Of a DNA stretch of 64,000 nt, positions 8,866 through 48,824 are shown piece after piece. The notes beneath the pieces were generated by a model, which worked only from the letters and a program-made list of their open reading frames with translations, was not told where the DNA came from and did no database searches. The stretch spans positions 2,858-66,857 of the forward strand of contig JBKCUA010000033.1 of the NCBI GenBank assembly GCA_046318675.1, in the 5' to 3' direction. The first letter of the stretch is position 1. The number at the start of each line of letters is the position of its first letter. The position numbers and the translations under genes were made by a program. This DNA is from Holosporales bacterium. GTDB lineage: Bacteria > Pseudomonadota > Alphaproteobacteria > JAJTHO01.

Positions 8866-8927
8866 AAGCCTCCCCAGATGAAAAAACAGCTGAGTTTGTG
8901 TATTATAAAGTTTTTTAAATCTAAAAA

Positions 8928-9194
8928 TTATCCAGCGATTTTCTTTAATCGCTTGGCCAGCCGGGAAACGGTACGACTGGCGGTATTGCCATGCAACACT
9001 CCCTTGGTCACGCCACGATGAATTTCTGGCTGAGCTTCCCTCAATGCTGCCGTCGCCGCTTGTACATCACCAGTATTCAGTGCCGCTTCAACTTTGCGAA
9101 TGAAGGTACGAACGCGGCTCAATCGGGCGCGATTAGCTTCCGTCCGAATAGCGGTAGTACGAATGCGTTTTTGGGCGGAAATATGCTGAGCCAT
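8928..9194 (-). CDS. rpsT: 30S ribosomal protein S20
   Basis: 88 aa, [13 protein letters not shown]... highly conserved bS20 sequence; rpsT-dnaA order typical of Alphaproteobacteria. Confidence 0.9.
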
Positions 9195-9239
9195 AAAAAT
9201 TCACCTAAACTATAGTTTACGTCGGACATGTACGCTACC

Positions 9240-9248
9240 TGTGGATAA
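9240..9248. promoter_or_regulatory. consensus DnaA box (TGTGGATAA = reverse complement of TTATCCACA) in rpsT/hupB divergent intergenic region
   Basis: perfect 9-mer read directly; lies about 45 nt upstream of rpsT start, in position to autoregulate the rpsT-dnaA transcript. Confidence 0.5.
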
Positions 9249-9486
9249 CTTAGGCGTCAAGTTCCTTTTTCATGGCTGTTCATGTCAGGCGCGCCCTAGC
9301 TTGAAAAGCCATAATAAAAAGCATTCTAGAGTGTGGCAGAAAATCATCATCATCAAAAAATATAAGAAAAAAGCCGTTTTTCAGTTGACGCAAAAATATT
9401 AATGCTTATGGATTGGCTTAAATAAGCCATTTTTAGGCCAACAAGGTCTGCAAAGCGGCGGATTCCAACCAACTGGAGAAAACCTT

Positions 9487-9765
9487 ATGAACAAAAATGA
9501 ACTCATTGGCGCGATTGCCGACCATTCCGGTCTCAGCAAGGCCGATACTACACGCGCCCTCGACGCGGCGCTAGAAATCATCAGCAAAACCCTCCGCAAA
9601 GGCGGCGACGTTCGCCTTGTCGGCTTTGGCACCTTCCTCGTTACCAAACGCCAAGCCACCGAAGGTCGTAACCCCCGCACGGGTCAAAAAATCAAGATTG
9701 CAGCCTCAACCCAGCCGAAATTCCGCGCTGGAAAAAGCCTGAAAGACCTCGTTAACAAAAAGTAA
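9487..9765 (+). CDS. hupB: DNA-binding protein HU
   Basis: 92 aa; MNKNELIGAIAD...GFGTF...RNPRTGQKIKI canonical HU/IHF fold signature. Confidence 0.88.
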   Translation: MNKNELIGAIADHSGLSKADTTRALDAALEIISKTLRKGGDVRLVGFGTFLVTKRQATEGRNPRTGQKIKIAASTQPKFRAGKSLKDLVNKK

Positions 9766-9781
9766 TCTCTAAAAATACCCT

Positions 9782-9818
9782 AAAAAACGGCTTTCGTTCT
9801 ACGCGGAGGCCGTTTTTT
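9782..9818 (+). terminator. Rho-independent terminator downstream of hupB
   Basis: aaaaaacggc ... gccgtttttt inverted repeat (6-10 bp stem) followed by T-run, 17 nt after hupB stop. Confidence 0.5.
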
Positions 9819-10046
9819 GATTGTGCAAAAAACTAACGGCCCTGGGGTTGGGCATCACCTATGAACAGCTCACCTCCGACCTGACAGGCGTCAACTATTA
9901 CAGCATCCAGACAATGCTGAAAAAAGGGGGTCAAAAAATCCGCCCGATCCTGTCTCTCGCTTTTTAAACGCGGCTTACGTACTCTCCGACGATGCTTTGC
10001 TAAAACTCAAAGCCTTCACCCTCTATGGTTCCGCTTAAACTGATGG

Positions 10047-11126
10047 GTGGTAAGTATGTCTTTCTTAATGATAGCAATATCCATTGTCTCTGCCCCTATC
10101 CCATTTTACAATAACGGGGCGATGTCCTCCGTTTTTCTCCCTCCTCTTGCCCTGACCGCCGGTGAACCCGCCGGGATTGCCGCTGAGATTACCGTGCGGG
10201 CGTGGTTGGGGCGTGATCGCTTGCCGGTGCCGTTTTATATTGTTGCGGATGCGGATCATATAAAGGAAACTGCGGCGCGACTGCGGTTAAGCGTGCCCAT
10301 TGCGCGTATTACCGACCCGCATCAGACAACAATGGTCTTTCCCAGCGCTCTACCGGTACTGCACCAGCCGTTGGCCGTCCCTGTGACCCCGGGGGTGCTT
10401 GAACCCGCCAATGCCCCCGCTGTGCTGGCAAGTTTGCAGACGGCCCTCGCGGCGGTGCAGGGCGGCACGGCAAGTGCGCTGGTCACCAATCCGATTCATA
10501 AGGGCACATTGTATGCTGCTGGGTTTTCGTATGATGGGCATACGGAGTATTTGGAGGCGCATACATACACGCCTTTGGCAGTGATGATGCTGGCCTGTCC
10601 ATCGCTGCGGGTGGTGCCATTGACGATTCATAAGTCGTTGCGTCAGGCGATTGAGCACGTTGCGCCGCACCGCATTATTGCCACGGTGCGGGTGATGGTG
10701 TCTGGCCTCCGCGAGTATTGGGGCATCGCTCGGCCCCGGATTGCGGTGGCGGGGCTTAATCCCCATGCCGGGGAGGGAGGTACCATGGGGGATGAAGAAA
10801 TACGGTGTATTGTTCCTGCGCTGGAGGCTTTGCGTGAGGAAGGGATTGATGTGCAGGGACCGTTTGCTGCCGATGGGTTGTTTCATGAGCAGGCGCGGGG
10901 GAGCTATGATGCGGCTTTATGTATGTATCATGATCAGGCGTTGATCCCTATTAAGACGCTGGATTTTTGGGGTGCGGTGAACATTACCTTGGGTCTGCCC
11001 ATTATTCGCACCTCGCCGGATCACGGCACGGCGTTGTCCTTGGCAGCGGTAGGCGGGGCGCGACCCAACAGCTTGCTCGCGGCGTTGACGCTGGCGGGGG
11101 AGCTGGCTCTAAAACGTGTTGGATAA
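10047..11126 (+). CDS. pdxA: 4-hydroxythreonine-4-phosphate dehydrogenase PdxA
   Basis: TAGEPAGIAAE N-terminal motif, NPHAGEGG, HDQALIPIK motifs; likely true start ATG 10122 (MSSVFLPP...). Confidence 0.85.
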   Translation: MVSMSFLMIAISIVSAPIPFYNNGAMSSVFLPPLALTAGEPAGIAAEITVRAWLGRDRLPVPFYIVADADHIKETAARLRLSVPIARITDPHQTTMVFPSALPVLHQPLAVPVTPGVLEPANAPAVLASLQTALAAVQGGTASALVTNPIHKGTLYAAGFSYDGHTEYLEAHTYTPLAVMMLACPSLRVVPLTIHKSLRQAIEHVAPHRIIATVRVMVSGLREYWGIARPRIAVAGLNPHAGEGGTMGDEEIRCIVPALEALREEGIDVQGPFAADGLFHEQARGSYDAALCMYHDQALIPIKTLDFWGAVNITLGLPIIRTSPDHGTALSLAAVGGARPNSLLAALTLAGELALKRVG

Positions 11127-11937
11127 TAGTGCGATTTTGGCGTTGCCGCCGCTGCGGGAGGTTATCGGTGCGGCAAAGCTCTCGGCGGATAAACGTCTGG
11201 GGCAGAATTTCCTCATGGATATCAACCTGACCCGCAAGATTGCCCGGCAGGTAGGGCAGGGTGGTATCATTCTCGAGATTGGCCCTGGGCCTGGCGGCCT
11301 TACTAGAGCCTTGTTGTTGGAGCATTGTGTCCCTGTGGTCGCGGTTGAAAAAGACCCGCGCGCCGTGGCGGCGTTACAGCCGTTGGTGCAGGCTGCCGCC
11401 GGGAGGCTGACGGTCATCGAGGGCGACGCGCTGGAGTTGGACGTGCTTGGTTTTGCGCCGCCGCCGTTGTGGGTGGCGGGAAACCTTCCTTACAATGTGG
11501 GGACAGCGATTGTCCTGCAGCTTTTTCAACAGATACATCGTGTCGCCGGGATGGCACTGATGTTTCAGCGGGAGGTAGCCGAGCGCCTCGCGGCAAAGCC
11601 CAGCACCCCCGCGTACGGCCGGCTTTCGGTGGTGGCGCAGGCTCTATGCCGGGTGGAGAAATGCTTTGATCTGCCCTCCAGTGCCTTTGTGCCGCCCCCA
11701 TCCATTGTCAGCCGGGTGGTGCGCCTCATCCCCCACGCGGATGCAGCGGTGGTGCCGCTGGAGGCGTTGGCAACCCTTACCAAGGCCGCCTTTGGCCAGC
11801 GGCGCAAGATGCTGCGCCGGAGTTTGGAGCCATTGTTGCCGCGCCTGCCGCCGCTGGAGGACGCCTTTTTGCAGCAGCGGGCGGAAGACGTGACGGTGGC
11901 ACAATACGTGGCGTTGGCGCGGAAGCTTATTATTTAA
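11116..11937 (+). CDS. rsmA: 16S rRNA (adenine1518/1519-N6)-dimethyltransferase RsmA/KsgA
   Basis: 273 aa; LGQNFLMD motif, SAM-binding EIGPGPGGLT; follows pdxA as in the conserved pdxA-ksgA pair. Confidence 0.88.
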   Translation: MLDNSAILALPPLREVIGAAKLSADKRLGQNFLMDINLTRKIARQVGQGGIILEIGPGPGGLTRALLLEHCVPVVAVEKDPRAVAALQPLVQAAAGRLTVIEGDALELDVLGFAPPPLWVAGNLPYNVGTAIVLQLFQQIHRVAGMALMFQREVAERLAAKPSTPAYGRLSVVAQALCRVEKCFDLPSSAFVPPPSIVSRVVRLIPHADAAVVPLEALATLTKAAFGQRRKMLRRSLEPLLPRLPPLEDAFLQQRAEDVTVAQYVALARKLII

Positions 11938-13870
11938 ACCCTAAAGCACTGGCGATGCCTTTCACCGCGCCTCCTACGGCATCGGAGCCAGCTTTTGCCG
12001 CCGCCGTTGATCCTGTTGCTCTGGTCGCATTGGCAGCTTGTTCCAGCATTTGTGCCGCCTGTCCGGCGACGTTGGTATCCATCCGGCCGGCATCGCTCGT
12101 GGTTTGCGGGTTGACAAAGGCATCGGCGATCTGACCTGTTGCCTTGATGAGCATATTGCTGGTTATACCAATGAAGATGAGTTGAAGCCAGACATCGGTG
12201 CCAAGGGCGTTTTTGGATGGGGTAGTGTTAATAGCGTCCACCGCGCCACTGGTCAGGCCGATAATGGCCGCCTGTATCACCAGTTCTGTGGAGCTTTGGA
12301 TCATGCCTTTGAGGGCGGTGGTGGTGATAGAACGCAGGCCAGGCAGGACAAACGCGGCAATAATCAGGGGGCTAAGCATAGCCAGCAACAGCCAGCGGAT
12401 AATTACATCGGCGGCCTGGAGCGGGAAAAGCAAATACATCTTACCGAAAAACCATAGTATTGGGGCGGCACTGAGAATCATCATAATCAAACCAACAGGA
12501 CTGGTCCATGATCCATCCCACAAGGTTTGCAGAGCCTGCATCAACACCCCGCCGATGCTGCGCTGCATGGCACCGAGGAGACAGGCAGCCGACTTGGCCA
12601 TGGCTTTTCCATCGGCACTGGCACTGTTGAGGTTGCCGCAGAATTCGGAGACAACGCCGCTCATCCCCGTACCTTCCGAGGCGGTGTTTGTTATTATCCC
12701 GGCGGTTTGCATACCCGAGACGACGATGGGCGCATACACATAATGCCAGAAATTTGCAAAACTGCCCAGGAACAAACCCACAAGGAACACGATGCCCATA
12801 CGGCTGACCACCATGTTGTTGAGGTTGTTCATCTGTGCCATGGGGGTAAAGGGGGTGTAGATGCGGGCGACGTGAAATAAACTCCACACTACGGCAAAAA
12901 TGCCCAGCAGGCCGAGCATGGCATTTTGCAGGGCTTTGAAAACCTTCTGGCCATACGTATCACTAATCTCAAGAAGTTTGGCGATCACCTCGCATCCCAT
13001 GCAAGCCTGGATTAAATCTTCGACGGCTAATGATTTTTTGAGTTTATCTATGCTTTTACCAAGTGCTTTCTGGCTGGCACTTTGGGGGTCGTTCATGCCG
13101 CTGCCGGTGGTGGTGCTGGCTTCGCCCCGCTGTTTGGTCAGATCAAGGGCGCAGGCGGCGACCCCTTGTTTTTTTAAACCGGCCAAGGTGGCGGCATCGC
13201 TTTTGGGAAGTTTTTTGATGTCCTCGCTGCTGAGAGTGTTGTTAATAAGATTATCACACGTGATCATATCCTTACAAAAATGGACGGCGGCGGCACCGAT
13301 AGGATCGCGGGCTTGCAGGAAATCCGTGGGGTTAGTAGCGCAGCCGGGCACCGCAAGGTTGACATAGCTTTCTAAGGCTTGCTGTGCGCTGGATGTTTTA
13401 TCAAAAACAGCTTTGCAGGTGGGATCAACCCGGGCATTGCGAATGGCGAAGGTGAGCTTGCTGGCGCACTCGGCGGCGTTGGCCGGGGTTGATGCCGCGG
13501 GCAACGATTTGGCATCGGCAGAAGCCCCCAATTTTTCAGCAACAACTTTTTTGACATCAGGATCGGGATCGTAGTCCTCAATGACAGGGCCGTATTGTGG
13601 GGTTTTCTGCATACCACCAGTCCCGCACTGATTGGAGCGATAATAAACATTTTTGGCTACGTCTTCAGCTTGGGTACGCAGGAGAGCGGCTTTTTTCGGG
13701 TCTGTACTCTGCAAGGCATTGATTTGAGCATTGATACTTTGCTTGATTTTATTATTACATTGTGTGAGGCCTTGCCCCTCTAACCTCCCCGGTTCGGCCA
13801 GGGCGGGCAGGGCACCCAATAGGATAAAAACAGTTAATAAAACGCGGATCATTAGCTCTTTTTCTCCCAC
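11930..13870 (-). CDS. polytopic membrane protein, VirB6/TrbL-like topology (paralogue A; Cys-rich periplasmic N-domain)
   Basis: 646 aa; signal peptide; roughly 300-aa hydrophilic Cys-rich domain; 6 predicted TM helices; hydrophilic Ala/Gly-rich C-tail; shares CxxC...YGxK.F, FW(H/R)YVY.P.VV and LSP motifs with the two upstream ORFs. Confidence 0.4.
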   Translation of the reverse strand: MGEKELMIRVLLTVFILLGALPALAEPGRLEGQGLTQCNNKIKQSINAQINALQSTDPKKAALLRTQAEDVAKNVYYRSNQCGTGGMQKTPQYGPVIEDYDPDPDVKKVVAEKLGASADAKSLPAASTPANAAECASKLTFAIRNARVDPTCKAVFDKTSSAQQALESYVNLAVPGCATNPTDFLQARDPIGAAAVHFCKDMITCDNLINNTLSSEDIKKLPKSDAATLAGLKKQGVAACALDLTKQRGEASTTTGSGMNDPQSASQKALGKSIDKLKKSLAVEDLIQACMGCEVIAKLLEISDTYGQKVFKALQNAMLGLLGIFAVVWSLFHVARIYTPFTPMAQMNNLNNMVVSRMGIVFLVGLFLGSFANFWHYVYAPIVVSGMQTAGIITNTASEGTGMSGVVSEFCGNLNSASADGKAMAKSAACLLGAMQRSIGGVLMQALQTLWDGSWTSPVGLIMMILSAAPILWFFGKMYLLFPLQAADVIIRWLLLAMLSPLIIAAFVLPGLRSITTTALKGMIQSSTELVIQAAIIGLTSGAVDAINTTPSKNALGTDVWLQLIFIGITSNMLIKATGQIADAFVNPQTTSDAGRMDTNVAGQAAQMLEQAANATRATGSTAAAKAGSDAVGGAVKGIASALGFK

Positions 13871-15189
13871 GGAATATTAAATTTTGGTTGGGGTATGTTG
13901 GGGTTTTTGAGCATCTCGGTGACGGTGGGGATACGTTGGCTGATTTGTGAACGGAGTTTTGTACCAATGGCCGCCGGATCCTGGGCAAAGGGGAGCAGGT
14001 TTTGCAGTTGTTTGCGGGTGCTATTGAAGTTGTTACCGATGCTTTTGCCAAGGCGTTCAAAAATTTGCATGGCAAACATTGGCATACGCATGGTTGCCGG
14101 GACTTGGGTGATCTGGTTACTCCAACCCGAAGTTTGCTTTAAAACGGCACCAGTAGCAATATATAATGCCAACAGACGCCAGTAATCAGGCGATAAAATA
14201 CCGTTCTGTAGGGAAAGCCCGGCAACATTGGTGGCATTACCCATATCCAGAACATTTTTAACAATCACCATAAAGACAGCAATCACCCCGCCGGTGAGCA
14301 TGATGTTAATCCCCGACGCAAACAACACCTTGACGGCCAGCGTCGTAATCTGACGGGAAATGGGAAAGATAAACGATAAGGCCAGTACAGGGCTTAAAAT
14401 CGTTATTATCGTTAAATTAATAAGAATGTCCACCACTCGGGCAATGATGAGGAGCAGCAGCGGTGCGGCCGCCGCAATCAACCCCAGCCCTGCCGTCCAG
14501 CGCAGCAGAGACTGACCCCCGCCGCCAACCGTCGCATCCATGTAGCTGACCGTTTCGTTGCCTTTCCACAGATCGTGGCCGAGCTTGATGCCCATGCCCA
14601 GGACGCGCTGCATGATTTCCACGTTGCAGAGAAATTTCTGGGTGGCGTCGCTGCTGACACTGCCGGGGGAAGAGGCGGGAGGAGTGCAGGTGGTGATTTC
14701 CTTATTGCCAACGTATCGGGCGGCGTTGTTGATATAGGCTTGGCTGACTTTACTGCCGACGCTGACGATCATGTCCTGAATGCGCCAGAACAGTTGATAG
14801 TTTTGCACAAGGCCGATGACAATCATGGTTAAGATAAGCTGTTTCACCAGACCGTTGAGCACCTTGGGGGCTTCCTGTCCGCCAAAGGGGCTGAACAGTT
14901 GCCCCGCCTGAAACAGGAACCAGAGGGCTAAAAAGATGCTCAACGGGGTGGCAATCTGCCCGGCGATGAGTTCAAAGGCGCGCTTGCCGTAATCCTGACG
15001 CACGTCGTCCATAAGCTGGAGCAGGGAACACACCCAGCAGGTGCTGTACCAGTCGTCTTTGGTCGGGATCGTCAGCTTGCCGGAGGGGGAAGAGACGGTG
15101 GCCGAATCACCAGCAGCAGCCGGAGCAGGCGTCTGCGCGGCGGCAGGCACGGCAAAAAACAAGAGTAAAAAGAGGAGGAGCGCGCGCAT
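13852..15189 (-). CDS. polytopic membrane protein, VirB6/TrbL-like topology (paralogue B)
   Basis: 445 aa; signal peptide, CWVCSLL...YGKRAF motif, 5-6 TM helices, hydrophilic C-tail; 19-nt overlap with downstream paralogue, 1-nt overlap with upstream ORF. Confidence 0.4.
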   Translation of the reverse strand: MRALLLFLLLFFAVPAAAQTPAPAAAGDSATVSSPSGKLTIPTKDDWYSTCWVCSLLQLMDDVRQDYGKRAFELIAGQIATPLSIFLALWFLFQAGQLFSPFGGQEAPKVLNGLVKQLILTMIVIGLVQNYQLFWRIQDMIVSVGSKVSQAYINNAARYVGNKEITTCTPPASSPGSVSSDATQKFLCNVEIMQRVLGMGIKLGHDLWKGNETVSYMDATVGGGGQSLLRWTAGLGLIAAAAPLLLLIIARVVDILINLTIITILSPVLALSFIFPISRQITTLAVKVLFASGINIMLTGGVIAVFMVIVKNVLDMGNATNVAGLSLQNGILSPDYWRLLALYIATGAVLKQTSGWSNQITQVPATMRMPMFAMQIFERLGKSIGNNFNSTRKQLQNLLPFAQDPAAIGTKLRSQISQRIPTVTEMLKNPNIPQPKFNIPWEKKS

Positions 15190-18100
15190 TAGTTTATTCC
15201 CATTTTTTCGAGTTTTTCTCGAACACCGTCATTCCATTCTTTTTTGGATTCTTCTTTTTTTGCGGCTCTGGCGGCAATTTCTTCTTCTTTTTTAATAATT
15301 TTGTCAGATGCCTGATCTAAATATCTCCTGGCGAAGGTGTCGTATGTTTTAATGGCAGTCTGGACATCGAGTTTTTCTTGGGTGTAGAGCTCTGCCTGTT
15401 TCTCGTTGAGGCGGAGTATTTCTGCTTTAACCTCCGTTTTTTCCCAGCTTAATTTGCTGATCTCTTTGGCAATCTGCGTCGTCATGTTGGCGGGAAGGCC
15501 AGCGGCCAGCATGGCGGTGTTCTCGCGCAGTTTTTTCTCAATGTCGTTGAGGCGGGCGTCGTTAAGGCGGATGCGGTCGCTAAGTTCTTCGTGTTTTTTG
15601 TTATACTCTTCACGGATATCGTTGCGTTTCAGGTCGCCTTTGCCTTCATAGTCTTTCTGGGCGGTTTGAAGAATAGCTTGTTTTTTATCATGGTATTCGT
15701 TGATGTTGCGTATTTTATCGTCACGCTCGCTCATCATGCGGGTAATTTCTTCTTGCCCACTGCGAAGAATAACCTGCCGCAAGGCGCGAATGTCGCCGAG
15801 TTCTTTGGCAATATCGGCGGCGGGGGTTGTAGTGTCTTTACGCAACACATCCTCGCGTTTTTTGAGATCGGCCAGCTCTTGTTTAACGGTATTTTTCATG
15901 TCCTCGATGTTCTTATCCACGTTGCTTAGTGCCTGGTGCCGCTGGGCTTCGTTAGTCATTTCGGCGTGCTTGAGATCAACCATGCGGGAAAGGTTGCCGG
16001 ACCCTCTATTGGCAAGGGTTGCGCCTATTGTGCCACCCCTAAAAAATCCTTCGGCGACGTTAGAAAGTCCGGTGGCATCGGCCATAGTTGTTACAACTGT
16101 TCTCGGTGCGGCGATAATCACTGCGCCAAGGGTAGTAGCAGTAGTTGTTAAAGCCCATTTTCCGATTTCCATTGGTGCATTTTTTATATCATCAATGATC
16201 CGGTCTCTTGTGCCTTTGGCGATTTCACCCAAAGCATTGGTAACCCGATCTGTTGTATCTTTGATGGGTTGCGGGATGGCATCACCGACTTGACCGCTAA
16301 CGGTAGCGACACGTTCACGAACATCACGCAGCAAATTATCAAAGTCTTTTTTAAGGCTTTGAAAATCTTTGTATGGTTCCCGGGTAAAATTGTTGGTGCT
16401 TAAAAAATTGTTCACCCATTCTAAGAATTTTTCAGGCATTTGCATGGTTCCGGTGACAACATATTGCCGGGCGGCTTCTAGATACTGTAGGCCTGAATAG
16501 AGCGCGTCGGATACTTTACCGATATTGCTTGCAGTGCCAGTGGCGAGCCATTGGGCGTTATGTATGGTGCCATTAACAAGCCAAGCAGCACCGCTTCCAA
16601 CGCCTTGCAGCACATTTAAGGTGACGTTAAGAATTTGGTTGTCAACGCGCATTTTGTCGAGTCCTTGTGTAATGCGTCCCCCTAAATCATTCAGGCCATT
16701 GAGTGCATTTTGGCTTAATCTTCCGAGATCATTAAGTCTATCACCCATATACCCCCCCACCGCTCCCCCCACCGCCCCGGCACCGTCTTTGAGTGCATCC
16801 ATCCCTTTTGCCACCAGCTCATTGTTGGCGAGGGCGTTCAACGCGCCTTTGCCGGCAAAGCCGCCAAGGAACCCGGCTACCCCCGCGCCGGCATTCACGA
16901 AAGGAGTGAAGGCAGCACCCATTCCCCCTAACGCCCCGCCAAATGCGCCGAAAAGAGTATCCGTTGTTGTCCTTGCTAAGACGAGGCCTTGTTTAGCTAT
17001 CCAAGGGCCAAAAATCAGCAGCCACGTCGCCGCCATGGCAAAGGTGAGGATGGGCTGTCCAGATTGGCTGCTGCCCTGACCTGAAGCAATCGTGGCGTTG
17101 GGCACGGGTTGGCCGTTGAGGTAGGGGATAGGATCAACAGGATTTCCGCTATAGGGGTTGCTTTCGTCACCACCAAGGCGTAGTTCAAAATGCAGGTGAG
17201 GTCCGGTGGAACCACCCGTGTTGCCAACGTGGGCAATAATCATGCTGACATCCACCTGCTGGCCTTTAGTAACAAAAATTTTATCAAGATGCGCGTAAGC
17301 GGTATTATATCCACCATCGGGGTGATGAATGACGACGAGGTTCCCATACCCCCCTGTACCATTATCATCGGCTTTAATGACAACCCCCGGGGCGGCCGGT
17401 GTAACAGGTGCTCCGATAGGACAGGCGAAATCCACCCCTGCATGTAATTTCATTATACCTTTTATAGGATGCTTTCGCATACCATAACGACTACCTTTAC
17501 CGCCTATGGAGCAAGTACCACCTTGAGTAACTAATTTTATGGGATAGCGCAAACTGCCGTTAAAGGAGGGGGTGCTGCCGCCTTGGGTGGGATCAACGCT
17601 GGTGGTGCTAGCTAGGGGATCGTGGCGGACGTAGCTGCTCAGGGTTTTTGTGGTCGTGGCTGGTGGTGCTGTGGGCGTGTTGCCCTGCATCGCTCCTTGC
17701 ACTGCCGTTGCCGCTGTGCTGGCCGCCCCGGCGACGGCACTGCCTGCTTTGTTCATGCCGGCCTGGACGGTTTTGACGGCTTCTTGAATCACCCCGGCGG
17801 AGAGGACGGCGACAACTGAGACAACGGATAGGGTTAATCCTGCCTCCAGCAACCCTTTAAATCCCGTGTTGGCGTAGTTGCGGGTGGCGGGAAAACAGTA
17901 ACAGCCGATCAGCGCCGGGGACAGGCATGAAATGATCACCCAGCGCATCAGGGCATCAAGGATCATCACCGCAAAGGTTATCGGCGGGGTTATGCTGACA
18001 ACAAACACAATCACGCCGATAAGGAGGTTGTTGGCATTGGCACCAGTTTGGGTGATCATGTACCATCCGGTGGCAATGCCATAGCTGAAGGCGTTTTGAA

Positions 18101-18803
18101 AGCTGTGTACCATGCATTCGAGGCGGTATTGCAGTGAGCGTTCCTCTTCGCTTAGGCCACTGATGACGGTTTTGCTGCACTTATTGCCGTCTTTGAGGGT
18201 GAAGGTATCAACGGTGTATTGGCCGTTTTGCCCTTTGGTGCCCTCGGTCAGCAGGGCGTTGGACATATTAATAGAGATATTGACCACGGGCTTGTAAATA
18301 TACCGCCAATACAAATCATACGACGTCGGAGCCAAAAGAATAATCGAGACGGTGAGCACCAGTGCGCCCTTGGTGAACAGGGTGCTGGCAATGGCGTTGG
18401 TGCGGTTGGCCGGAGCAAAGGGGAGCAGCATTTTGGCCACCTGCACCAACGTCCACAGAACAAAGGCCACGCTCAAGAATGTTGCCACGCCCGATCCGAA
18501 CATGGGCAGCAGTATTTTGCCGTACTGCATGGAGGCGGCGAACAGGCGGCTGATAATACCGCAGGAAAGACATACTCCCGAAAACCAGTTCATGGTGTCG
18601 GTAATGGCGGCAGAGGAGGAGGTCGCAGAGGATGTGCTCTTGGCGGCGGGGGGTGTTGCGGTTGGGGGTGTCGTCGTTGTGGTAGCTGTCGCCGCCGGTG
18701 GAGTACTGCCCGTCGCCATAGCGGGAGACACCCCGCAAACCAGCAGACCAAGCCCCAAAAGGAGCACACCAAAAAAACCAGAACGGGTAAAATACCTCGG
18801 CAA
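15189..18803 (-). CDS. VirB6/TrbL-like membrane domain fused to M23 (LytM) peptidase domain, Gly-rich segment and long C-terminal coiled coil
   Basis: 1204 aa, TTG start with AGGGG SD; N-terminal signal peptide + Thr/Pro-rich stretch + TM bundle homologous to paralogues A/B (VCLSCGI...YGKILLP); M23 motifs HAGVD and HLHFE (about 17110-17470); Gly-rich repeats; last roughly 260 aa heptad-rich charged coiled coil. Confidence 0.55.
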   Translation of the reverse strand: MPRYFTRSGFFGVLLLGLGLLVCGVSPAMATGSTPPAATATTTTTPPTATPPAAKSTSSATSSSAAITDTMNWFSGVCLSCGIISRLFAASMQYGKILLPMFGSGVATFLSVAFVLWTLVQVAKMLLPFAPANRTNAIASTLFTKGALVLTVSIILLAPTSYDLYWRYIYKPVVNISINMSNALLTEGTKGQNGQYTVDTFTLKDGNKCSKTVISGLSEEERSLQYRLECMVHSFQNAFSYGIATGWYMITQTGANANNLLIGVIVFVVSITPPITFAVMILDALMRWVIISCLSPALIGCYCFPATRNYANTGFKGLLEAGLTLSVVSVVAVLSAGVIQEAVKTVQAGMNKAGSAVAGAASTAATAVQGAMQGNTPTAPPATTTKTLSSYVRHDPLASTTSVDPTQGGSTPSFNGSLRYPIKLVTQGGTCSIGGKGSRYGMRKHPIKGIMKLHAGVDFACPIGAPVTPAAPGVVIKADDNGTGGYGNLVVIHHPDGGYNTAYAHLDKIFVTKGQQVDVSMIIAHVGNTGGSTGPHLHFELRLGGDESNPYSGNPVDPIPYLNGQPVPNATIASGQGSSQSGQPILTFAMAATWLLIFGPWIAKQGLVLARTTTDTLFGAFGGALGGMGAAFTPFVNAGAGVAGFLGGFAGKGALNALANNELVAKGMDALKDGAGAVGGAVGGYMGDRLNDLGRLSQNALNGLNDLGGRITQGLDKMRVDNQILNVTLNVLQGVGSGAAWLVNGTIHNAQWLATGTASNIGKVSDALYSGLQYLEAARQYVVTGTMQMPEKFLEWVNNFLSTNNFTREPYKDFQSLKKDFDNLLRDVRERVATVSGQVGDAIPQPIKDTTDRVTNALGEIAKGTRDRIIDDIKNAPMEIGKWALTTTATTLGAVIIAAPRTVVTTMADATGLSNVAEGFFRGGTIGATLANRGSGNLSRMVDLKHAEMTNEAQRHQALSNVDKNIEDMKNTVKQELADLKKREDVLRKDTTTPAADIAKELGDIRALRQVILRSGQEEITRMMSERDDKIRNINEYHDKKQAILQTAQKDYEGKGDLKRNDIREEYNKKHEELSDRIRLNDARLNDIEKKLRENTAMLAAGLPANMTTQIAKEISKLSWEKTEVKAEILRLNEKQAELYTQEKLDVQTAIKTYDTFARRYLDQASDKIIKKEEEIAARAAKKEESKKEWNDGVREKLEKMGIN

Positions 18804-19753: not shown

Positions 19754-20896
19754 CTAATGCACAAGGCTTAGCAAAACCTTAGCGGCGGCGTGCCCGGCGC
19801 TGGGGCTGCCTGCAGGGGGGCGCAATTTGGCCAACGCCGGGGTAACGGCGGCAGAGAACGCCTTTTTATGGCCAAACGTCTGGGTTACGGCCTCGGCCAG
19901 GGCTTGCGGCGTGGCGGCGTCTTGCAAATATTCCGGGATAACAGCCTTGTTCTCCAAAATATTAACAAGAGAGGCAAAACGAATGGTAATCAGGCGTTTG
20001 GCAATTTGGTGGGTGAGGGGATGAACGCGGTAAGCGACCACGTGGGGCGTGCCGGCGGCGGCGAGTTCCACGCTGACCGTGCCGGAGGCGGCGAGGGCAA
20101 CATCGGCCGCACGGTACAGCGGCACCCGGTAGTGACTATCCGTTACAATCCTTACGGCAAGCCGGGACTTCCTTACGATGGCGTGGACTGTGTCGGCAAG
20201 AAACGGCACGGTCATCAGGGCAAGCTGGGTATCGGGGTGGTGCTGCTGCACGCGCCGGGCGGCGTTAAGAAATAGGGGCAACAGGCGGGTTACTTCCCCC
20301 CGGCGGCTACCGGGCAGGAGCAGCAGTAAAGGCTTTTCCTTGTTTATTGCACAATCGGAATAAATATTTTTTTGTTCTGCTGTTGCATTGTAGCGTTCGA
20401 GAATAGGATGACCCACAAAGGTGCTGGCCAGGCCGTGCTTTTCAAAAAGAGGCGGCTCAAAAGGCAGCAAACAGAGCAGGTGATCATAAATCGCCGCCAT
20501 GGTCGCCGCCCGGCCCGGCTTCCACGCCCACACCGACGGCGCGACGAGATGCACCAGCTTCCCGTGCCATTTTCCCTGCTCCCTGGCGACATGGAGACGG
20601 CGCGCCAGCCGGGCATTAAACCCTGGCGCATCAATGGTGCAAACGATATTGGGTTGCGCCTCTAGCACAGCGGCTACCGTCTCTTTCAGGCGTCGAAACA
20701 GCCGTGGTAAGCGCGGCAGCACTTCGACCAACCCCATGACCGCCAGATCGTGGAGAGGAAAGAGGGATGCTAGCCCCGCCGCTTGCATCTCTTCCCCCCC
20801 GATGCCTGAAACGGCGGTGCCCGGCGGCAGGGCCTTGATGACCGCCGCGCCCAAGGCATCGCCGGAGGGTTCGCCCGCACTGAAAAAAATCTTCAT
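19754..20896 (-). CDS. lpxB: lipid-A-disaccharide synthase
   Basis: 380 aa; MKIFFSAGEPSGDALGA N-terminus and GT-B fold characteristic of LpxB; position after lpxI. Confidence 0.85.
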   Translation of the reverse strand: MKIFFSAGEPSGDALGAAVIKALPPGTAVSGIGGEEMQAAGLASLFPLHDLAVMGLVEVLPRLPRLFRRLKETVAAVLEAQPNIVCTIDAPGFNARLARRLHVAREQGKWHGKLVHLVAPSVWAWKPGRAATMAAIYDHLLCLLPFEPPLFEKHGLASTFVGHPILERYNATAEQKNIYSDCAINKEKPLLLLLPGSRRGEVTRLLPLFLNAARRVQQHHPDTQLALMTVPFLADTVHAIVRKSRLAVRIVTDSHYRVPLYRAADVALAASGTVSVELAAAGTPHVVAYRVHPLTHQIAKRLITIRFASLVNILENKAVIPEYLQDAATPQALAEAVTQTFGHKKAFSAAVTPALAKLRPPAGSPSAGHAAAKVLLSLVH

Positions 20897-21717
20897 GAGC
20901 TAGGCACCCCGCAGAGAAATAGCCCTGCTGCATCGGCGGCGGCAATGGCTTCTTCTTGTTGCAGCAGTAAGGTTTCCCCGGCACCGCCAGCAATCCCGGC
21001 AAAACCAGCGGCGGCGGCTTTGTGCATCGTATCAAGACCCAAGGCCGGCATATCCGCCCGGCGTTCCTGACCGGGTTTGGCGGTCTTGATGAGAATCATT
21101 TGGCCTTGGTAATCAAAGCCCGCCGCCCGTTCCAGCAGCGCATCGGTGCCGCCGATGTCTTCTACTGCCAGCACACGGCCTTCCGCCACCACCACCGCTT
21201 GGCCGAGATCGAGGGGGGCTAGCTGGTGCAGGGCGGCAAGACCCACAGCGATGCTGTCCCGTTCGGCGTTGGTGGGGTGACGCCGGGTCAGGCAGCGTTG
21301 AGGCAGTAACACCCCGCCCAGAATCTCGTGGGCACCCACCACGCCAAAGCCTTCTTCTTCTAAGAAACGGATGACCGCTTTCAGTAGGCCGTCGTCGCCC
21401 CGGCTGATGCCCATGCGAGCCAGCAGGCGCAGCCCTGCCGCATCCGGCGCAAGCTGGAGCAACGGCGGGCGGCGTATCTGCCCGGCCAGGACAATGTGGG
21501 TGACCCCGGCGGCCTTGAACGCGGCCAAACTAGCCCCGACGGCCCCCAACCGGCCAATGTGGTGGGGCCGCCCGGTAAGCAGGGCTGGATCGGTTTGCTC
21601 GCTAAACCCTAGGATGTAATATGGTATGTTATGTGATTCAAAGTAGTGTATCAGCAAGACAGGCAACGCGCCGCGCCCGGCGATGAGGCCATACACCCTA
21701 GGCGGCATCGCTGGCAA
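20893..21717 (-). CDS. lpxI: UDP-2,3-diacylglucosamine diphosphatase LpxI (DUF1009)
   Basis: 274 aa between lpxA and lpxB as in alphaproteobacterial lipid A clusters; N-terminal GLIAGRGALP motif. Confidence 0.6.
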   Translation of the reverse strand: MPAMPPRVYGLIAGRGALPVLLIHYFESHNIPYYILGFSEQTDPALLTGRPHHIGRLGAVGASLAAFKAAGVTHIVLAGQIRRPPLLQLAPDAAGLRLLARMGISRGDDGLLKAVIRFLEEEGFGVVGAHEILGGVLLPQRCLTRRHPTNAERDSIAVGLAALHQLAPLDLGQAVVVAEGRVLAVEDIGGTDALLERAAGFDYQGQMILIKTAKPGQERRADMPALGLDTMHKAAAAGFAGIAGGAGETLLLQQEEAIAAADAAGLFLCGVPSS

Positions 21718-22516
21718 AGCTGGTGCTGGTGGCGGGGCGACAGAGCTGGCGGCTGCCCCTTGTGTTGAGGAAGGCGACTAAGTCTTGCACGGCGGTGCTG
21801 GGATTATTGCGTAATTTTTCCAAGGCTTCGGCCACGGTGGTGGTGTCGTTAAACAGGCCCTGCAAGGCGTGGCGCAGGGCGTGGATATCGTCCCTTGCAA
21901 AGCCGCGACGTTTGAGGCCGACGATGTTAAGACCCGCGAGGTGCGCCCGCTCGCCCATGACGGTGGCAAAGGGCAGGACATCATGCTCCACCCCGGAAAG
22001 GCCGCCGATCATGGCGTGTTTGCCAATACGGACAAATTGATGAACGGCGGCAAGGCCGCCAATAATGGCATGCTCACCCACTTCAACGTGGCCGGCGAGG
22101 GTGGCGTTGTTGGCCATAATAACGTTATCACTGACGATGCAATCGTGGGCAACGTGTACCCCGACCATGAGTAGGCAGTGATTACCAACTTTCGTCACCA
22201 ACCCCCCGCCAGCGGTTCCGGCATGGACGGTGGCGTGCTCACGAATGGTGGTGTGGTGGCCGATTTCAACACGGGAAGGCTCGCCTTTGTATTTTAAATC
22301 TTGGGGCACGAGGCCGATAGTGGCAAAGGGAAAAACCGTGCTGTGGGCAGCGATGCTGGTGGTGCCGCTGATAACTGCGTGGGAATGAATCGTGACGTGA
22401 TCGCCGAGGGTGATATTCCCCTCAAGAACGCTGTATGCACCAACGTGGACATCTTGGCCTAGAACAACGTCCTTGCCAATAATAGCGGTAGGGTGGATTA
22501 GGGGTGTGTCAGACAT
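21698..22516 (-). CDS. lpxA: acyl-ACP--UDP-GlcNAc O-acyltransferase
   Basis: 272 aa; left-handed beta-helix hexapeptide repeats, IHPTAIIG start, LpxA C-terminal helical domain. Confidence 0.88.
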   Translation of the reverse strand: MSDTPLIHPTAIIGKDVVLGQDVHVGAYSVLEGNITLGDHVTIHSHAVISGTTSIAAHSTVFPFATIGLVPQDLKYKGEPSRVEIGHHTTIREHATVHAGTAGGGLVTKVGNHCLLMVGVHVAHDCIVSDNVIMANNATLAGHVEVGEHAIIGGLAAVHQFVRIGKHAMIGGLSGVEHDVLPFATVMGERAHLAGLNIVGLKRRGFARDDIHALRHALQGLFNDTTTVAEALEKLRNNPSTAVQDLVAFLNTRGSRQLCRPATSTSFASDAA

Positions 22517-22997
22517 CCATGATCATCGCGGTAAAGATGGCTTCCGCGCAGACTTTCCCGTCCACGATAGCTTCGCCTGCAAAACGAAAGACATTGCGGC
22601 GGCCATGTTGTTTGGTGACGTGCAGTTGAATTTGATCCCCGGGGGAGACAGGCTTGCGGAATTTGGCCTCATCAATACCCATGAAATAGACAAGTTTCCC
22701 CTGCGCCTTGGTGCCAAGGGAATGGACGACAACAATCCCGGCGGTTTGGGCGAGAGCCTCAACGATAAGCACGCCGGGCATGACGGGACGTTCGGGGAAA
22801 TGCCCGGTGAAGAAATGCTCATTAATCGAGACATTTTTAAAGCCGATGGCGCGTTCGCCGACGCTGAGGATGCGAATACGCTCCAGCAACAGCATAGGGT
22901 AACGGTGGGGAATCATGGCCATGATGCCGTTGACGTCAATCTCAATAGGGGGAATCGTCAGGGCATCAGTGCCGATAGTCAGGGTGTTGTCAGTCAT
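22509..22997 (-). CDS. fabZ: 3-hydroxyacyl-ACP dehydratase FabZ
   Basis: 162 aa; hotdog fold motifs [27 protein letters not shown]. Confidence 0.9.
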
Positions 22998-24022
22998 TCC
23001 GTTGCTGTTCCTTTGCCAGCTGCTGCCCGTTTGAGGTAGGCAACCTGGCGAAAAAATTCCTTAAGGGGTTGAGCGGGGCTTCCCCCAACGCCGCCGCCGG
23101 GGGGAATGTCCCGCATGACGCCGCTGGAGGCAGCGATGCGGGCACCGTTACCAACTTTTATATGCCCGGTCAACCCGGACTGGCCGCCGATTTGGACATA
23201 TTGGCCGATTTCCGTGCTACCGGAGATACCGACTTGAGCCACCACAATAGACCCCCGGCCAATGCGAACGTTGTGGGCGATTTGCACGAGGTTATCGATC
23301 ATCACCCCGTCTTCAATGATGGTATCAGGGCCTGCGCCGCGATCGACGGTGGTGTTCGCGCCGATTTCCACGTCGTTGCCGATGATGACCCGGCCCAGCT
23401 GCGGCACTTTTACCGGGCGTTCTGGGTCAAAGGCAAAGCCGAAGCCCGGCTGGCCGATGCGGGCGCCGGGGTAGATGACGGTGCGATGGCCAATGTGGGC
23501 GTACTCAATGCTGGCGTGGGTACCAACAGTGCACTCATCGCCGAGGGTTACCCCGTCGCCCAGCACGGCATGGGGGTTGAGGCGACAGCTGCTCCCTATC
23601 TGTACGTTCTTGCCAATAACTACCCCGGCGGCGATGTGGCAGTTGGCGCCGATGCTGGCGGTGGGATCAATAATGGCGGTGGGGTGAATAAAGGCCGTTG
23701 CTGCTGGTGCGGGGTAGAAGTATTGCGCGATGCGGGCATAGGCCTTGTAAGGGTTGGGGACAACAAGGGCGACGGTGCCGGCGGGGCACAGGGGGGCTAA
23801 CGCCGCGGTCACCAAACACGCGCCGGCTTTGGTGGTGGTAAAGGCGTCTTTGTACTTGGGGTTGTCAAAAAAGCTGATGTCGCGTGCCGTTGCCGTGTGC
23901 AGCGGCGCCACGTCGTGGATCAGGCGATCCGCTGCTTCGGTGGGGAGGGGTGCGCCCACCAACGCTGCCAGCGTCGCCAGCGGGGCAGGGATCGGAGTGG
24001 TAAAAAAACGCGCATCGGCCAT
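22994..24022 (-). CDS. lpxD: UDP-3-O-acylglucosamine N-acyltransferase
   Basis: hexapeptide-repeat LpxD; six-frame ORF extends to 24118 but MADARFFT... (24022) matches LpxD N-termini. Confidence 0.85.
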
Positions 24023-24899: not shown

Positions 24900-25322
24900 A
24901 TGACAATTGAGCATACTCTCTCCATTCTCAAGCCCGACGTGACGCGGCGCAACCTGACCGGGAAGGTCAACGCGGTGTTTGAAGACGCCGGGCTGCGCAT
25001 TGTAGCGCAAAAACGGCTGCATCTGACGGCGGCGCAGGCCGGGGCTTTTTACGCTGCCCATAAAGAGCGCGGCTTTTTCAAGGATTTGGTGTCCTTCATG
25101 ACCTCTGGCCCGGTGGTGGTCCAGGTGCTGGAAGGCGACAACGCCGTCCAGCGCAACCGCGATTTGATGGGGGCAACCAACCCGGCCAATGCCGCGCCGG
25201 GGACGGTGCGCAAGCTGTTTGCCGAATCCATTGAGGCAAACTCGGTGCATGGTTCTGATTCCCATGAAGCGGCGGCGGCGGAGATTGCCTTTTTCTTCTC
25301 CGGTATTGAAATTCTTCCGTGA
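24900..25322 (+). CDS. ndk: nucleoside diphosphate kinase
   Basis: 140 aa from ATG 24900 (AAGGAACAATCATG RBS); NDK motifs LSILKPD, NAVHGSDS. Confidence 0.9.
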
Positions 25323-25325
25323 TCT

Positions 25326-26495
25326 ATGGCGGCGTATGATCTAGAGCGGCTGTCTATCCTTATTATTGACAGCAGTTCTTTTGCATTAGCCTTGTTATCT
25401 AGGGTTTTGCGAAGCCTTGGTGTGCGTAAGATAGTTGTGGCGAACGGCGGGGCTGAGGCGGTCAATATTCTTAAGAATGCCGGTAAAATTAATAAGCTTC
25501 AGCCTTCCGCAACGGTTCAGCAGTTCGATGTTATTTTTTGCGAATGGCGGATGTCGCCAATTAATGGGGCGATGATGGTAAAGTGGATTCGGCGGCATAA
25601 AGATTCCCCCGATCCCTTTATCCCTATTATAGTTGCTAGCGCGCTTTCAGAGGCGGACGTCGCAGCAGAAGCAAGAGACCTTGGCGCGACGGAATTCCTT
25701 GTCAAGCCATTTTCTGTGGCTTCGTTGGCGGCAAAATTGGCAGGCGTCATCGAATGGCCGAGACCTTTTGTTTATTCTAGGGATTTTTTTGGCCCTGATC
25801 GCCGACGTGCCCCTCAGATAGTTGCTTTTGAAGAGCGGCGCATGGCCACGGATAGTTCAATAATGACGTTGCACCAGCCTAAGATTCCGTCCGTTTTTAA
25901 GGAAGGCGTGATGGCCTATCGGTTTGTGTTGCCTAATCGTATCAAGACATTGGTTTCCGGATTGGGCGGAATGCAGGAGCAGGGTAGCTTTGCCGAAGAA
26001 GCTATGGAATCGGCTCATGCTGGTGTTGTTGGGATGGATGCAGATTATTCAGCGTGGGCGATGGATTTAGTGAATAAGCTGGAAAAAATTTGCCACCAAT
26101 TAGCCAAACAGCCCAAAAACTATTGGAAATATTATGCCTTGATGACCGATGTATCTCATGATTTGCGTGGGCAAGGTGGGACGTTTGGTTATCCGTTAAT
26201 TAGTGCTATTGCTAAGTCATTGTTTGAATATGCGCGGCTCAATGTTTCTCCGGACTCGGCTTTTGTAGATTTACTGCATACTCATGTACAGTGCGTTCAG
26301 AGCGTACTTAGGGATAAGGTGCGCGGCGATGGCGGGGATATAGGCAAAGGTGTTTTGGAAATGCTAGATAATGCTCGGCATCATTATGAAAATCGCACCA
26401 TTGATGGTTCTTTGAAGGCGGATGCTCAAGAACCTTTAAGCGACTCAGGCCAAGATGAGTTCTTACCTGATCTGGACGATAATTTTGAAAAATAA
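25326..26495 (+). CDS. atypical receiver domain (phospho-acceptor Asp replaced by Glu) fused to C-terminal Hpt-like domain
   Basis: 389 aa; REC fold (ILIIDSS ... FDVIFCEWRMSPINGA ... IIVAS ... LVKPF) with E at the CheY D57-equivalent; C-terminal SHDLRGQGGTFGY matches the Hpt HxxKG..G motif. Confidence 0.55.
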   Translation: MAAYDLERLSILIIDSSSFALALLSRVLRSLGVRKIVVANGGAEAVNILKNAGKINKLQPSATVQQFDVIFCEWRMSPINGAMMVKWIRRHKDSPDPFIPIIVASALSEADVAAEARDLGATEFLVKPFSVASLAAKLAGVIEWPRPFVYSRDFFGPDRRRAPQIVAFEERRMATDSSIMTLHQPKIPSVFKEGVMAYRFVLPNRIKTLVSGLGGMQEQGSFAEEAMESAHAGVVGMDADYSAWAMDLVNKLEKICHQLAKQPKNYWKYYALMTDVSHDLRGQGGTFGYPLISAIAKSLFEYARLNVSPDSAFVDLLHTHVQCVQSVLRDKVRGDGGDIGKGVLEMLDNARHHYENRTIDGSLKADAQEPLSDSGQDEFLPDLDDNFEK

Positions 26496-42381: not shown

Positions 42382-43476
42382 TTAAAAAAGTTCAATATCA
42401 TCATCGGGATTAATAGAGGTATTTTTCTTGTCATCAATAGTGAGGTGTAGGTTTTCCGGATTGATGCCATGGTGTTCGGCATAATCACGAATCGCGATCA
42501 TAAATTGTTGGCGCATTGTGCCAAGTTTAATACCGGAAATAATAGAATGCGTGGCATCGTTCAGGGCTTGCGTGTCAAGAGATGGGGTGGGGTTCGCATC
42601 AATTTTTTGCTCTGCTTGTTTCAGTAATTTTAGGCATTGTTCCAAAATAGTGCAGGCGTTATCCGCCACTTGGGTATTGCGATCTTGAAATTGCAAATCT
42701 ACAATCATAGCATGAATCGATTCGGCAATTTTTTGTGATGTGGTAATAGATACCTGCATTGCCTCAGCATTATCTTGATTTTGTTTTACTATGCCTTGCA
42801 TTAGGCGTTCCAAGCTATCTTTGGCGAGCATATTACTATTCATATCGGTGCTGGCAATCTCTTGGAGGACACTGAAACCCTCGGTGACGCTGTTGGTGAC
42901 AGCTCTAGCTCGGCCGCTCATTTCATTAGAAAGTTGTGCAATTTGTTTTGAAATGGTTTTGACTTCGGCGGCCACAACGGCAAAACCTTTTCCTGCCTGC
43001 CCGGCGCGGACGGCTTCAATCGTGGCATTAAGGGCGAGAATATTTGTTTTGTGTGTAATTGCTTGAATTGTTTTTGAAAACTTTTCAATTTCCTTAAGGT
43101 GTTCAATGGCATCGCTGAGATTGTATATAATAGAAATGGAACGTTGTGAAACCATGAGCAGTTTTTCAACGGAATCATTGACAGCCTGTAGAAATTCATC
43201 AATAAATTGCCTGAAGGGAATAAGCGTCCCGTTAACATTGACTGTACTGCTGCCTTCAAGAATCAATTTTAAATGTGAGGATTGCTGTAAAGCTGCTTGT
43301 GCTAGGGTTTTGAAGCGATCGGTAAGGTCTACTGCGGCGTGCTCTACTTTTGTTGCGTTGTCGGGTAAGGTCGTAGCAAGAATTTTGAGTGCAGCACCGT
43401 TAGCGGTGAGGAGTGATAAAACTTCTGGAGCATAAAGGTTATTGGTCATGGTTGTTTTCCGATGCTTTTGTCTCAA
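42382..43476 (-). CDS. soluble methyl-accepting chemotaxis protein (no TM segments)
   Basis: 364 aa; MCP signalling domain ([31 protein letters not shown]), no hydrophobic helices. Confidence 0.75.
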
Positions 43477-44506: not shown

Positions 44507-44513
44507 GACCACC

Positions 44514-45095: not shown

Positions 45096-45104
45096 TGTTG
45101 TGCT

Positions 45105-45929: not shown

Positions 45930-45937
45930 GATACCCT

Positions 45938-46432: not shown

Positions 46433-46443
46433 GTGCGGTTCCT

Positions 46444-48812: not shown

Positions 48813-48824
48813 GGGAGAGGCTCC

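Follow-up and report, generated by a model that had tools for sequence, protein, structure and literature searches.

In a 64,000-nucleotide stretch of DNA from a Holosporales bacterium (assembly GCA_046318675.1, contig JBKCUA010000033.1; hereafter, the window), we examined a gene whose product joins a CheY-like receiver, through an arginine-rich linker, to a C-terminal histidine-containing phosphotransfer (Hpt) domain, and found that its receiver carries glutamate (E73) in place of the phospho-accepting aspartate. In our preferred reading, to which we give a probability of about 0.6, a pseudo-receiver that works independently of phosphorylation regulates or presents an Hpt domain whose histidine, H278, is the only phospho-site left in the protein. 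The identities of the domains, the loss of the acceptor, the decay of position 16, the purifying selection on the gene and the homology of the first half of the linker to Caulobacter CleD are the established parts of this account.

The receiver lacks its phospho-acceptor

Pfam PF00072 (Response_reg) is the sole Pfam domain of the protein (residues 11-138; E = 3.7e-16; 59.7 bits, the cut-off being 30.2). The receiver is modelled as five strand-helix units, that is, the (beta-alpha)5 fold, and Foldseek comparison with CheY and the Sln1 receiver returned target-normalised template modelling (TM) scores of 0.85-0.92. Mapping of the active site through phmmer alignments to CheY structures in the PDB placed Glu73 where the acceptor Asp should end strand beta3, and revealed that of the acidic metal-binding pair D15 is kept and the second residue is serine (S16); the switch residues S105 and F124 and the receiver lysine K127 are retained. 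A first-pass annotation of the bare sequence had reported a receiver with Glu at the acceptor position, a D-S pair and conserved Ser and Lys, and the CheY alignments agree on every point, the Glu being residue 73. The protein thereby falls under the published definition of a pseudo-receiver, a profile-recognised receiver without key catalytic residues (PMC12632262). The window also encodes a CheY and a CheB, and since both of these have the canonical DD/D/T/K set, the acceptor-site substitutions are specific to the receiver-Hpt gene. When compared to CheY, the receiver also has an insertion of ~13 residues between alpha2 and beta3 (aa 51-67; window 25476-25526, + strand), which is present throughout the family and is modelled with lower confidence (pLDDT, the predicted value of the local distance difference test, ~75).

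Loss of the aspartate is recent and the gene remains under selection

Residue counts for the family were made over 182 non-redundant members, of which 178 have Asp and four have Glu at position 73. All four sequences with Glu fall in a single tight clade of two sister species, both Holosporales metagenome-assembled genomes, and their nearest relatives (42-52% identity) all have Asp. As read from these alignments, the aspartate, which the family normally keeps, has been lost recently and in this lineage only; the lineage-wide distribution that had been raised as a question thus holds for the two sister Holosporales species, in which Glu is fixed, but not for the family. All 20 distinct variants of the two species, which come from many independent assemblies and samples, carry E73, indicating that it is not a sequencing artefact, and its codon (GAA) is identical in the three sequenced loci. 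The sequences support the earlier claim that the canonical Asp is not available for phosphorylation of this receiver.

Of the 182 family members, 177 have Asp at position 16. The residue there is Ser in all eight variants of the window species, and either Asp (seven variants) or Gly (five variants) in the sister species, the codons being AGC in the window, GGC in locus L001 and GAC in locus L081. L001 and L081, the sister-species loci, differ at only three nucleotides, D16G being one of these differences; among the nine polymorphic positions of that species, position 16 is the sole radical change in the receiver. Fixed in 20/20 clade variants, meanwhile, are S105, R117, K127, D158, R159, R160, R172 and H278. 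In our reading, loss of the acceptor Asp came first and decay of the metal site is under way, with the receiver fold still needed.

Quantification of the ratio of nonsynonymous to synonymous substitution rates (dN/dS) against the sister species gave 0.064 for the whole gene; by part, the values were 0.023-0.027 (receiver), 0.14 (linker) and 0.084 (Hpt domain), all of them approximate given that dS is saturated (1.1-2.0). No other part of the protein is as strongly conserved as the receiver, and the gene is functional and under strong purifying selection. Because Glu is fixed in a gene under such selection, the receiver is predicted to go on functioning without Asp phosphorylation.

The C-terminal domain is a divergent P1-like Hpt domain

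The C-terminal domain is a genuine but divergent Hpt domain resembling P1 of the chemotaxis kinase CheA. It contains the Hpt phosphohistidine motif that the first pass had picked out, S-H278-D-L-R-G-Q-G-G-T-F-G-Y, in which H-x-x-K-G reads H-D-L-R-G, with Arg for Lys. A plain PDB sequence search with the C-terminal half gave no match, and a profile was therefore needed. The domain profile (A2) matched almost solely CheA P1 in the PDB, with H278 on the phospho-His (T. maritima 2LD6, E = 0.002), along with a P1-derived design (E = 3.8e-5). The AlphaFold model of the domain (pLDDT 88.8) has five helices with H278 in helix 2, and Foldseek with this model placed CheA P1 best (TM 0.71-0.74, probability 1.00), followed by HptB, RcsD, AHP1, Ypd1 and ArcB. 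With the full-length model (pLDDT 85.7; predicted TM score 0.83), Foldseek matched the receiver part alone.

Transitive homology points in the same direction. Upon exhaustive hidden Markov model (HMM) searching with the domain we obtained 1,519 representatives at E ≤ 1e-10, and the best 150 matches comprised 84 stand-alone proteins (140-215 aa) and 22 receiver fusions among others; the same domain was also found at the extreme C-terminus of a 1,259-aa hybrid histidine kinase, after two receivers (P0174). Several stand-alone members score above the Pfam Hpt gathering threshold (37.4, 30.1 and 29.6 bits against 24.6), and their homologues are mostly annotated as Hpt. hhalign joined the fusion domain (A2) to the stand-alone proteins with 100% probability (E = 3.7e-50, 141 columns), and weak, sub-threshold Pfam Hpt matches occurred in 29 of 49 aligned relatives (best E = 2.5e-4). 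The element F-x-L-P-N-R-I-K, which lies in the connector that precedes the domain, is also the N-terminus of the stand-alone relatives (~170 aa).

These stand-alone proteins make up a large P1-like Hpt subfamily of ~160-180 aa (P0130-P0268). Its members share an N-terminal L-P-N-x-L-K-x-K element, H-[DE]-[LM]-[KR]-G-Q-G-x-T-F-G-Y-P-L, A-H-[IV]-D and G-D-G-G.

A conserved linker resembling part of the Cle arginine-rich region

A feature missed in the first-pass annotation is the arginine-rich linker between the two domains, which is a plausible alternative input to the protein. Residues 144-176, with the pattern W-P-R146-PFVYSRDF-F-G-P-D158-R-R-R ... E-R171-R172, are among the most conserved of the family: P157 and R172 are present in all 182 members, R146, G156 and R159 in 181 each and R161 in 180. 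The core of the pattern, P-R-x7-[YF]-x-G-P-D-R-R-R, matches the arginine-rich region (ARR) with which Caulobacter CleD, KPREWVEAVAYVGPDRRR..., binds cyclic di-GMP (c-di-GMP; PMC7382256). Upon searching 177,635 PDB sequences with the linker profile (A3), we obtained a single match, the CleD peptide with c-di-GMP (6SFT; E = 1.4e-4). hhalign aligned linker and peptide with 92% probability, and the predicted strands at 148-150 and 155-157 coincide with the strands of the CleD peptide determined by nuclear magnetic resonance, at a register shift of +4. The offset from the acceptor to the Arg of helix alpha4 is 44 both here and in CleA (43 in CleD), and that from the acceptor to the first Arg of DRR is 86, the CleA value; the equivalence of R117 to the Cle alpha4 Arg was drawn from published residue numbers, not from direct alignment. 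Taken as a comparison of sequences, the linker is a homologue of the first half of the c-di-GMP-binding ARR peptide of Cle proteins.

The second half of the linker is divergent, being reduced to [ED]-R-R172 with a spacing whose mode is 14 instead of 15; the invariant R172 lies 14-15 residues past the Asp. One copy of [YF]xGP[DE][RK]R is present in 163 of the 182 proteins and two copies in none, and the strict form DRR-x11-[RK]RxxD, present in 3/182, is absent from the window protein. As only this single half-site is matched, we regard the protein as Cle-related and not as a Cle protein, and treat c-di-GMP binding as a hypothesis. Cle proteins are activated by c-di-GMP without phosphorylation; CleD naturally has Glu at its acceptor and its E70A variant is functional, as CleA D67A fully is (PMC5677366). 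A PilZ-like reading of the linker was rejected, only four short strands and no matching motifs being found.

Proposed mechanism and competing explanations

The family protein is built of three modules, namely a CheY/Cle-type receiver, a Cle-related arginine-rich linker and a CheA-P1-type Hpt domain. Most family members have both phospho-sites, the Asp and the His, in intact form, which makes it probable that the ancestral protein was a phosphorelay step from receiver to Hpt within one fused chain. In the Holosporales lineage, the acceptor Asp gave way to Glu, and the neighbouring metal-binding Asp has since been freed from constraint, which leaves a true pseudo-receiver that does not accept phosphate any longer. 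The receiver would now serve as a phosphorylation-independent regulatory or docking domain, and we infer that it is locked in one conformation. H278 would pass phosphate to and from other receivers or a kinase in trans; as partners, the window offers no other candidates than CheA, CheY and CheB, whose genes lie at a distance of 16-25 kb, and any ligand is putative. What input remains on the receiver side would most plausibly pass through the arginine-rich linker and the alpha4 Arg.

Several observations weigh against this reading. The Pfam Hpt model (PF01627) does not match the window protein even at E ≤ 10, so that the Hpt assignment expected in the first pass is supported by fold, profile and transitive evidence but not by Pfam itself. 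In an hhalign comparison with P1 of the organism's own CheA the histidines align, at a probability of only 7%, and the domain has therefore not been copied recently from that P1. For c-di-GMP binding, the second half of the Cle motif is indispensable in CleD, but here it is not conserved. Among 81 family loci, no conserved cognate kinase, partner or signalling gene was found next to the family members, and the saturated dS adds uncertainty to the selection estimates. The phospho-His itself is lost repeatedly: position 278 is His in 161 of the 182 fusions, Leu in 20 and Arg in one (a loss of about 12%), and 13 of the 84 stand-alone relatives (about 15%) lack it too, when compared to a baseline of 0.9% for Hpt domains (PMC12632262). 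The losses fall into about ten separate clusters, are nearly always to Leu, and include a His-less pair that is 82-83% identical to its His-bearing sister. Given losses of this extent in fusions and stand-alone relatives alike, phosphotransfer may not be the core function of the domain, and H278 may be unused here; the 'relay node' of the first pass stands as a receiver-Hpt fusion, and its picture of a simple relay is weakened.

Several Rhodospirillales genomes have two paralogues at separate loci, one with His and one with Leu (e.g., L047, L048, L049, L050, L054, L057 and L042 against L030, L061, L032, L033, L065 and L051).

The pattern of histidine loss supports the view that the Hpt-like domain is a docking or pseudo-Hpt module, which binds partner receivers or its own receiver without using H278. 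Consistent with it, R281, G282, F287-Y289, H320 and the G-D-G-G loop are invariant despite the loss of His; however, H278 is retained in every variant of the window clade, Asp and His are not both missing from any sampled protein, and in the hybrid kinase the domain sits at the canonical Hpt position, and we therefore hold this view to be unlikely. We think much the same of the proposal, following the phosphomimetic receiver of the first-pass annotation, that Glu73 mimics phosphorylation and locks the receiver in its active state, so that the Hpt module is 'on' or released constitutively. Among replacements of Asp in pseudo-receivers Glu is the most frequent, and in many response regulators it brings about partial activation (PMC12632262); the residues that a mimic would engage (S105, K127 and F124) are retained, and selection on the receiver is very strong. 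The idea has nevertheless been disproved in some pseudo-receivers (PMC12632262), and the behaviour of CleD E70A and CleA D67A (PMC5677366) argues that an acidic residue is not the activator of the Cle proteins, the closest characterised receivers; with the acceptor residue dispensable there, 'phosphomimetic' was an assumption. That the gene is decaying, or is an artefact of sequencing or assembly, can be regarded as refuted. Holosporales are a reduced-genome group, and signalling genes are often lost in reduced genomes, but a dN/dS of ~0.06, a reading frame intact in two species and 20 concordant variants from independent assemblies are incompatible with either.

It is possible, though on balance it seems somewhat unlikely, that the protein is gated by c-di-GMP or another nucleotide in the manner of Cle proteins, with the linker and R117 binding the messenger and so controlling the Hpt domain; the change from Asp to Glu would then have been tolerated because phosphorylation was already secondary. 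Cle biology provides the precedent, and the first ARR half-site is matched by residue and by spacing (R146, V149, Y/F154, G156, P157, D158, R159, R160 and R161). The CleD-c-di-GMP peptide as sole PDB match, the matching strands, the invariant Arg at the Cle position of alpha4 and the invariance of R172 are also in its favour. On the other hand, the family has a single motif copy and the window protein lacks the strict motif, whereas binding by CleD needs Y163, G165, R167-R169 and D172 and is weakened by single-residue deletions in the loop (PMC7382256). In the family as a whole the phosphorylation site is complete, unlike in a domain driven purely by ligand, and a scan of the 64-kb window with regular expressions only revealed no GGDEF or EAL gene. 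Carried further, this line of thought would make the family a previously unrecognised junction between second messenger and phosphorelay, at which linker and alpha4 Arg bind c-di-GMP or a related nucleotide and gate a P1-type Hpt domain; as the Holosporales receiver would be wholly phosphorylation-independent, the ligand alone would decide whether H278 exchanges phosphate with chemotaxis-type partners. We consider this extended version distinctly unlikely. The reading that we prefer is still that of a phosphorylation-independent pseudo-receiver acting on an Hpt domain with H278 as its remaining phospho-site.

Gene neighbourhood and the rest of the window

The coordinates of the gene, its parts and the genes discussed here are collected in Table 1. 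As had been stated in the first-pass annotation, the gene lies directly downstream of ndk, only 3 nt away, and the two are probably co-transcribed; a promoter and terminator scan around the gene gave no signal above chance. On the 5' side, lpxB, lpxI, lpxA, fabZ and lpxD are encoded on the minus strand, and lptB, an M24 aminopeptidase gene and uvrD follow on the 3' side. Among the 81 family loci, ndk is adjacent only in L001 and L081, both close Holosporales loci, and a functional link to ndk as a family feature is thus ruled out. Recurrent neighbours elsewhere in the family, named by eye only, are carboxylate-amine ligase-like, N-formylglutamate amidohydrolase-like, GapR/DUF2312-like and ABC/Mla-type genes. 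Six apparent upstream response regulators proved to be spurious antisense open reading frames (ORFs). The family has more than 600 full-length homologues of ~355 aa, for the most part in Rhodospirillales and related Alphaproteobacteria. As the Hpt domain escapes Pfam, databases name the members only "response regulator" or "CheY-like". The acidic C-terminal tail is confined to the Holosporales clade, the other family members having none; its evolution is fast (dN 0.89), and its length is not the same in the two sister species.

Table 1. Positions in the window of the receiver-Hpt gene, its domains and key residues, ndk and the chemotaxis genes.
Feature	Position	Strand	Basis or remark
Whole gene: pseudo-receiver / half-ARR linker / Hpt, 389 aa	25326..26495	+	ORF, full-length homologues, AlphaFold
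CheY-like receiver, aa 1-143	25326..25754	+	Pfam PF00072, CheY alignments, Foldseek
Acidic-pair codons D15 (GAC), S16 (AGC)	25368..25373	+	Aligned to CheY D12-D13; S16 replaces second metal-binding Asp
E73 (GAA), phospho-acceptor position	25542..25544	+	Aligned to CheY D57 ('vifcEwrm' vs 'fvisDwnm')
S105, Ser/Thr switch residue	25638..25640	+	Equals CheY T87; Ser in 179/182 family members
R117, predicted helix alpha4 (helix 110-119)	25674..25676	+	Arg in 182/182; positional equivalent of Cle alpha4 Arg
K127, receiver Lys	25704..25706	+	Equals CheY K109; Lys in 181/182
Arg-rich linker, aa 144-176	25755..25853	+	Linker profile A3 vs PDB, hhalign, predicted strands
Connector, aa 177-222, two beta-strands and F-x-L-P-N-R-I-K element	25854..25991	+	Predicted secondary structure
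CheA-P1-type Hpt domain, aa 223-360, five helices	25992..26405	+	Profile, fold, transitive homology
H278 (CAT), candidate phospho-His, second helix	26157..26159	+	Aligned to CheA phospho-His
Acidic, predicted-disordered C-terminal tail, aa 361-389	26406..26492	+	pLDDT <50
ndk	24900..25322	+	Pfam NDK E = 1e-52; ends 3 nt before receiver-Hpt start codon
PAS/HAMP methyl-accepting chemotaxis protein (MCP)	49100-51736	-	
STAS protein	48828-49112	-	
CheY, canonical active site	48447-48812	-	
CheA	46447-48456	-	
CheW	45941-46432	-	
CheR	45108-45929	-	
CheB, canonical active site	43442-44608	-	
Second, soluble MCP	42385-43476	-	

The chemotaxis genes form a complete che cluster (42385-51736, minus strand). 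Elsewhere in the window, dnaA lies at 7501-8865 (minus strand; Pfam DnaA_N, Bac_DnaA and Bac_DnaA_C). The ~1.2 kb beside it (8866-10046) have no convincing ORF and contain the only perfect DnaA box of the window (9240-9248), and the cumulative GC skew has its minimum at about 8-10 kb; on these grounds, this stretch is probably the replication origin. Two adjoining TrbL/VirB6-like genes, one of them encoding 1,204 aa with a fused M23 peptidase domain, occupy 13855-18803 on the minus strand, next to a 646-aa ORF without a Pfam match (11933-13870). GC content reaches 0.59-0.62 at 10001-12000 and at 20001-24000 (the lpxI/lpxA/fabZ/lpxD region), when compared to ~0.45-0.50 for most of the window.

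Comparison with known systems and implications

Cle proteins resemble the family most closely on the receiver side: they share a CheY-like receiver followed at identical spacing by P-R-x7-[YF]-x-G-P-D-R-R-R, an alpha4 Arg at the same offset from the acceptor and a beta-hairpin at the same place, and CleD shares the Glu at the acceptor; Cle proteins work without phosphorylation. The window protein differs in having the first half of the tandem ARR only, the Y-x-G-P-R-[KR]-R-x-x-D half being replaced by [ED]-R-R at another spacing, and in having a 215-residue connector plus Hpt where Cle proteins have a short tail. Most members of the window family, moreover, keep the full phosphorylation site, and binding of c-di-GMP and FliM is hypothetical here.

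The closest counterpart of the C-terminal domain, by structure and by profile, is CheA P1 (PDB 1I5N, 2LD6, 8C5V and 3KYJ), which shares the five-helix Hpt bundle, the His on the second helix and the motif H-x-x-[KR]-G-x-G-x-T-F-G-[YF]; P1 of R. sphaeroides CheA3, among these matches, is phosphorylated in trans. The window protein lacks the P2-P5 kinase modules; without a P3 for dimerisation, a P4 ATPase and a CheW-like P5, it has a P1-like domain only and is no CheA. Its identity to P1 is 13-21%, it has Arg for Lys in the motif, an additional invariant H320 and a G-D-G-G loop, and a receiver is joined to it. Alphaproteobacterial Hpt proteins that stand alone (~160-180 aa) and the C-terminal Hpt of hybrid kinases have the same domain, including the L-P-N-x-L-K-x-K element, but not the receiver as fusion partner or the Arg-rich linker. 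Caulobacter HmrX, which is P1-like with the same top Foldseek matches and has its His at residue 81 (PMC11481889), may belong to the stand-alone subfamily, a comparison made by description only; no Caulobacter entry appeared in the homology search of the stand-alone Hpt proteins.

The Caulobacter ShkA-ShpA-TacA pathway, in the summary of it given in PMC12632262, likewise has a pseudo-receiver and c-di-GMP controlling access in a phosphorelay that uses an Hpt protein. According to that summary, ShkA is a hybrid kinase that binds c-di-GMP on the alpha4-beta5-alpha5 face of its pseudo-receiver, and the Hpt protein ShpA is separate, whereas the window protein has no kinase domain. A 2026 preprint on a Caulobacter "c-di-GMP effector" deals with a GGDEF/EAL protein and is irrelevant here. 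About 2% of receivers lack the acceptor Asp (PMC12632262), and plant pseudo-response regulators, fungal Rim15p and many bacterial aspartate-less receivers share with the window protein a receiver fold with Glu at the acceptor (PMC12632262). The differences are that the output here is an Hpt domain and that the loss is very recent (two species), and owing to this recency one can still see what the ancestral state was and in which order decay proceeded.

All of the parts described here are known, i.e., the receiver, the Hpt domain, the Cle-type arginine-rich peptide and the Glu pseudo-receiver, and it is their combination that appears to be undescribed; the protein is a genuine variant of known signalling components that is still under selection, and does not amount to a new kind of system. 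It represents a natural experiment caught early, with a replaced acceptor Asp and a drifting metal-binding Asp, the latter even polymorphic within one species, while all else is strongly constrained; it reveals both in what order the active site of a receiver decays and that such a domain is still of use once this has happened. Across the family, either phospho-site can be lost, Asp having gone once and His many times, and since the linker and the surface motif of the Hpt domain stay invariant meanwhile, these sequences suggest a function beyond simple phosphate relay. The testable hypothesis that arises is that c-di-GMP may provide an input into the Hpt module.

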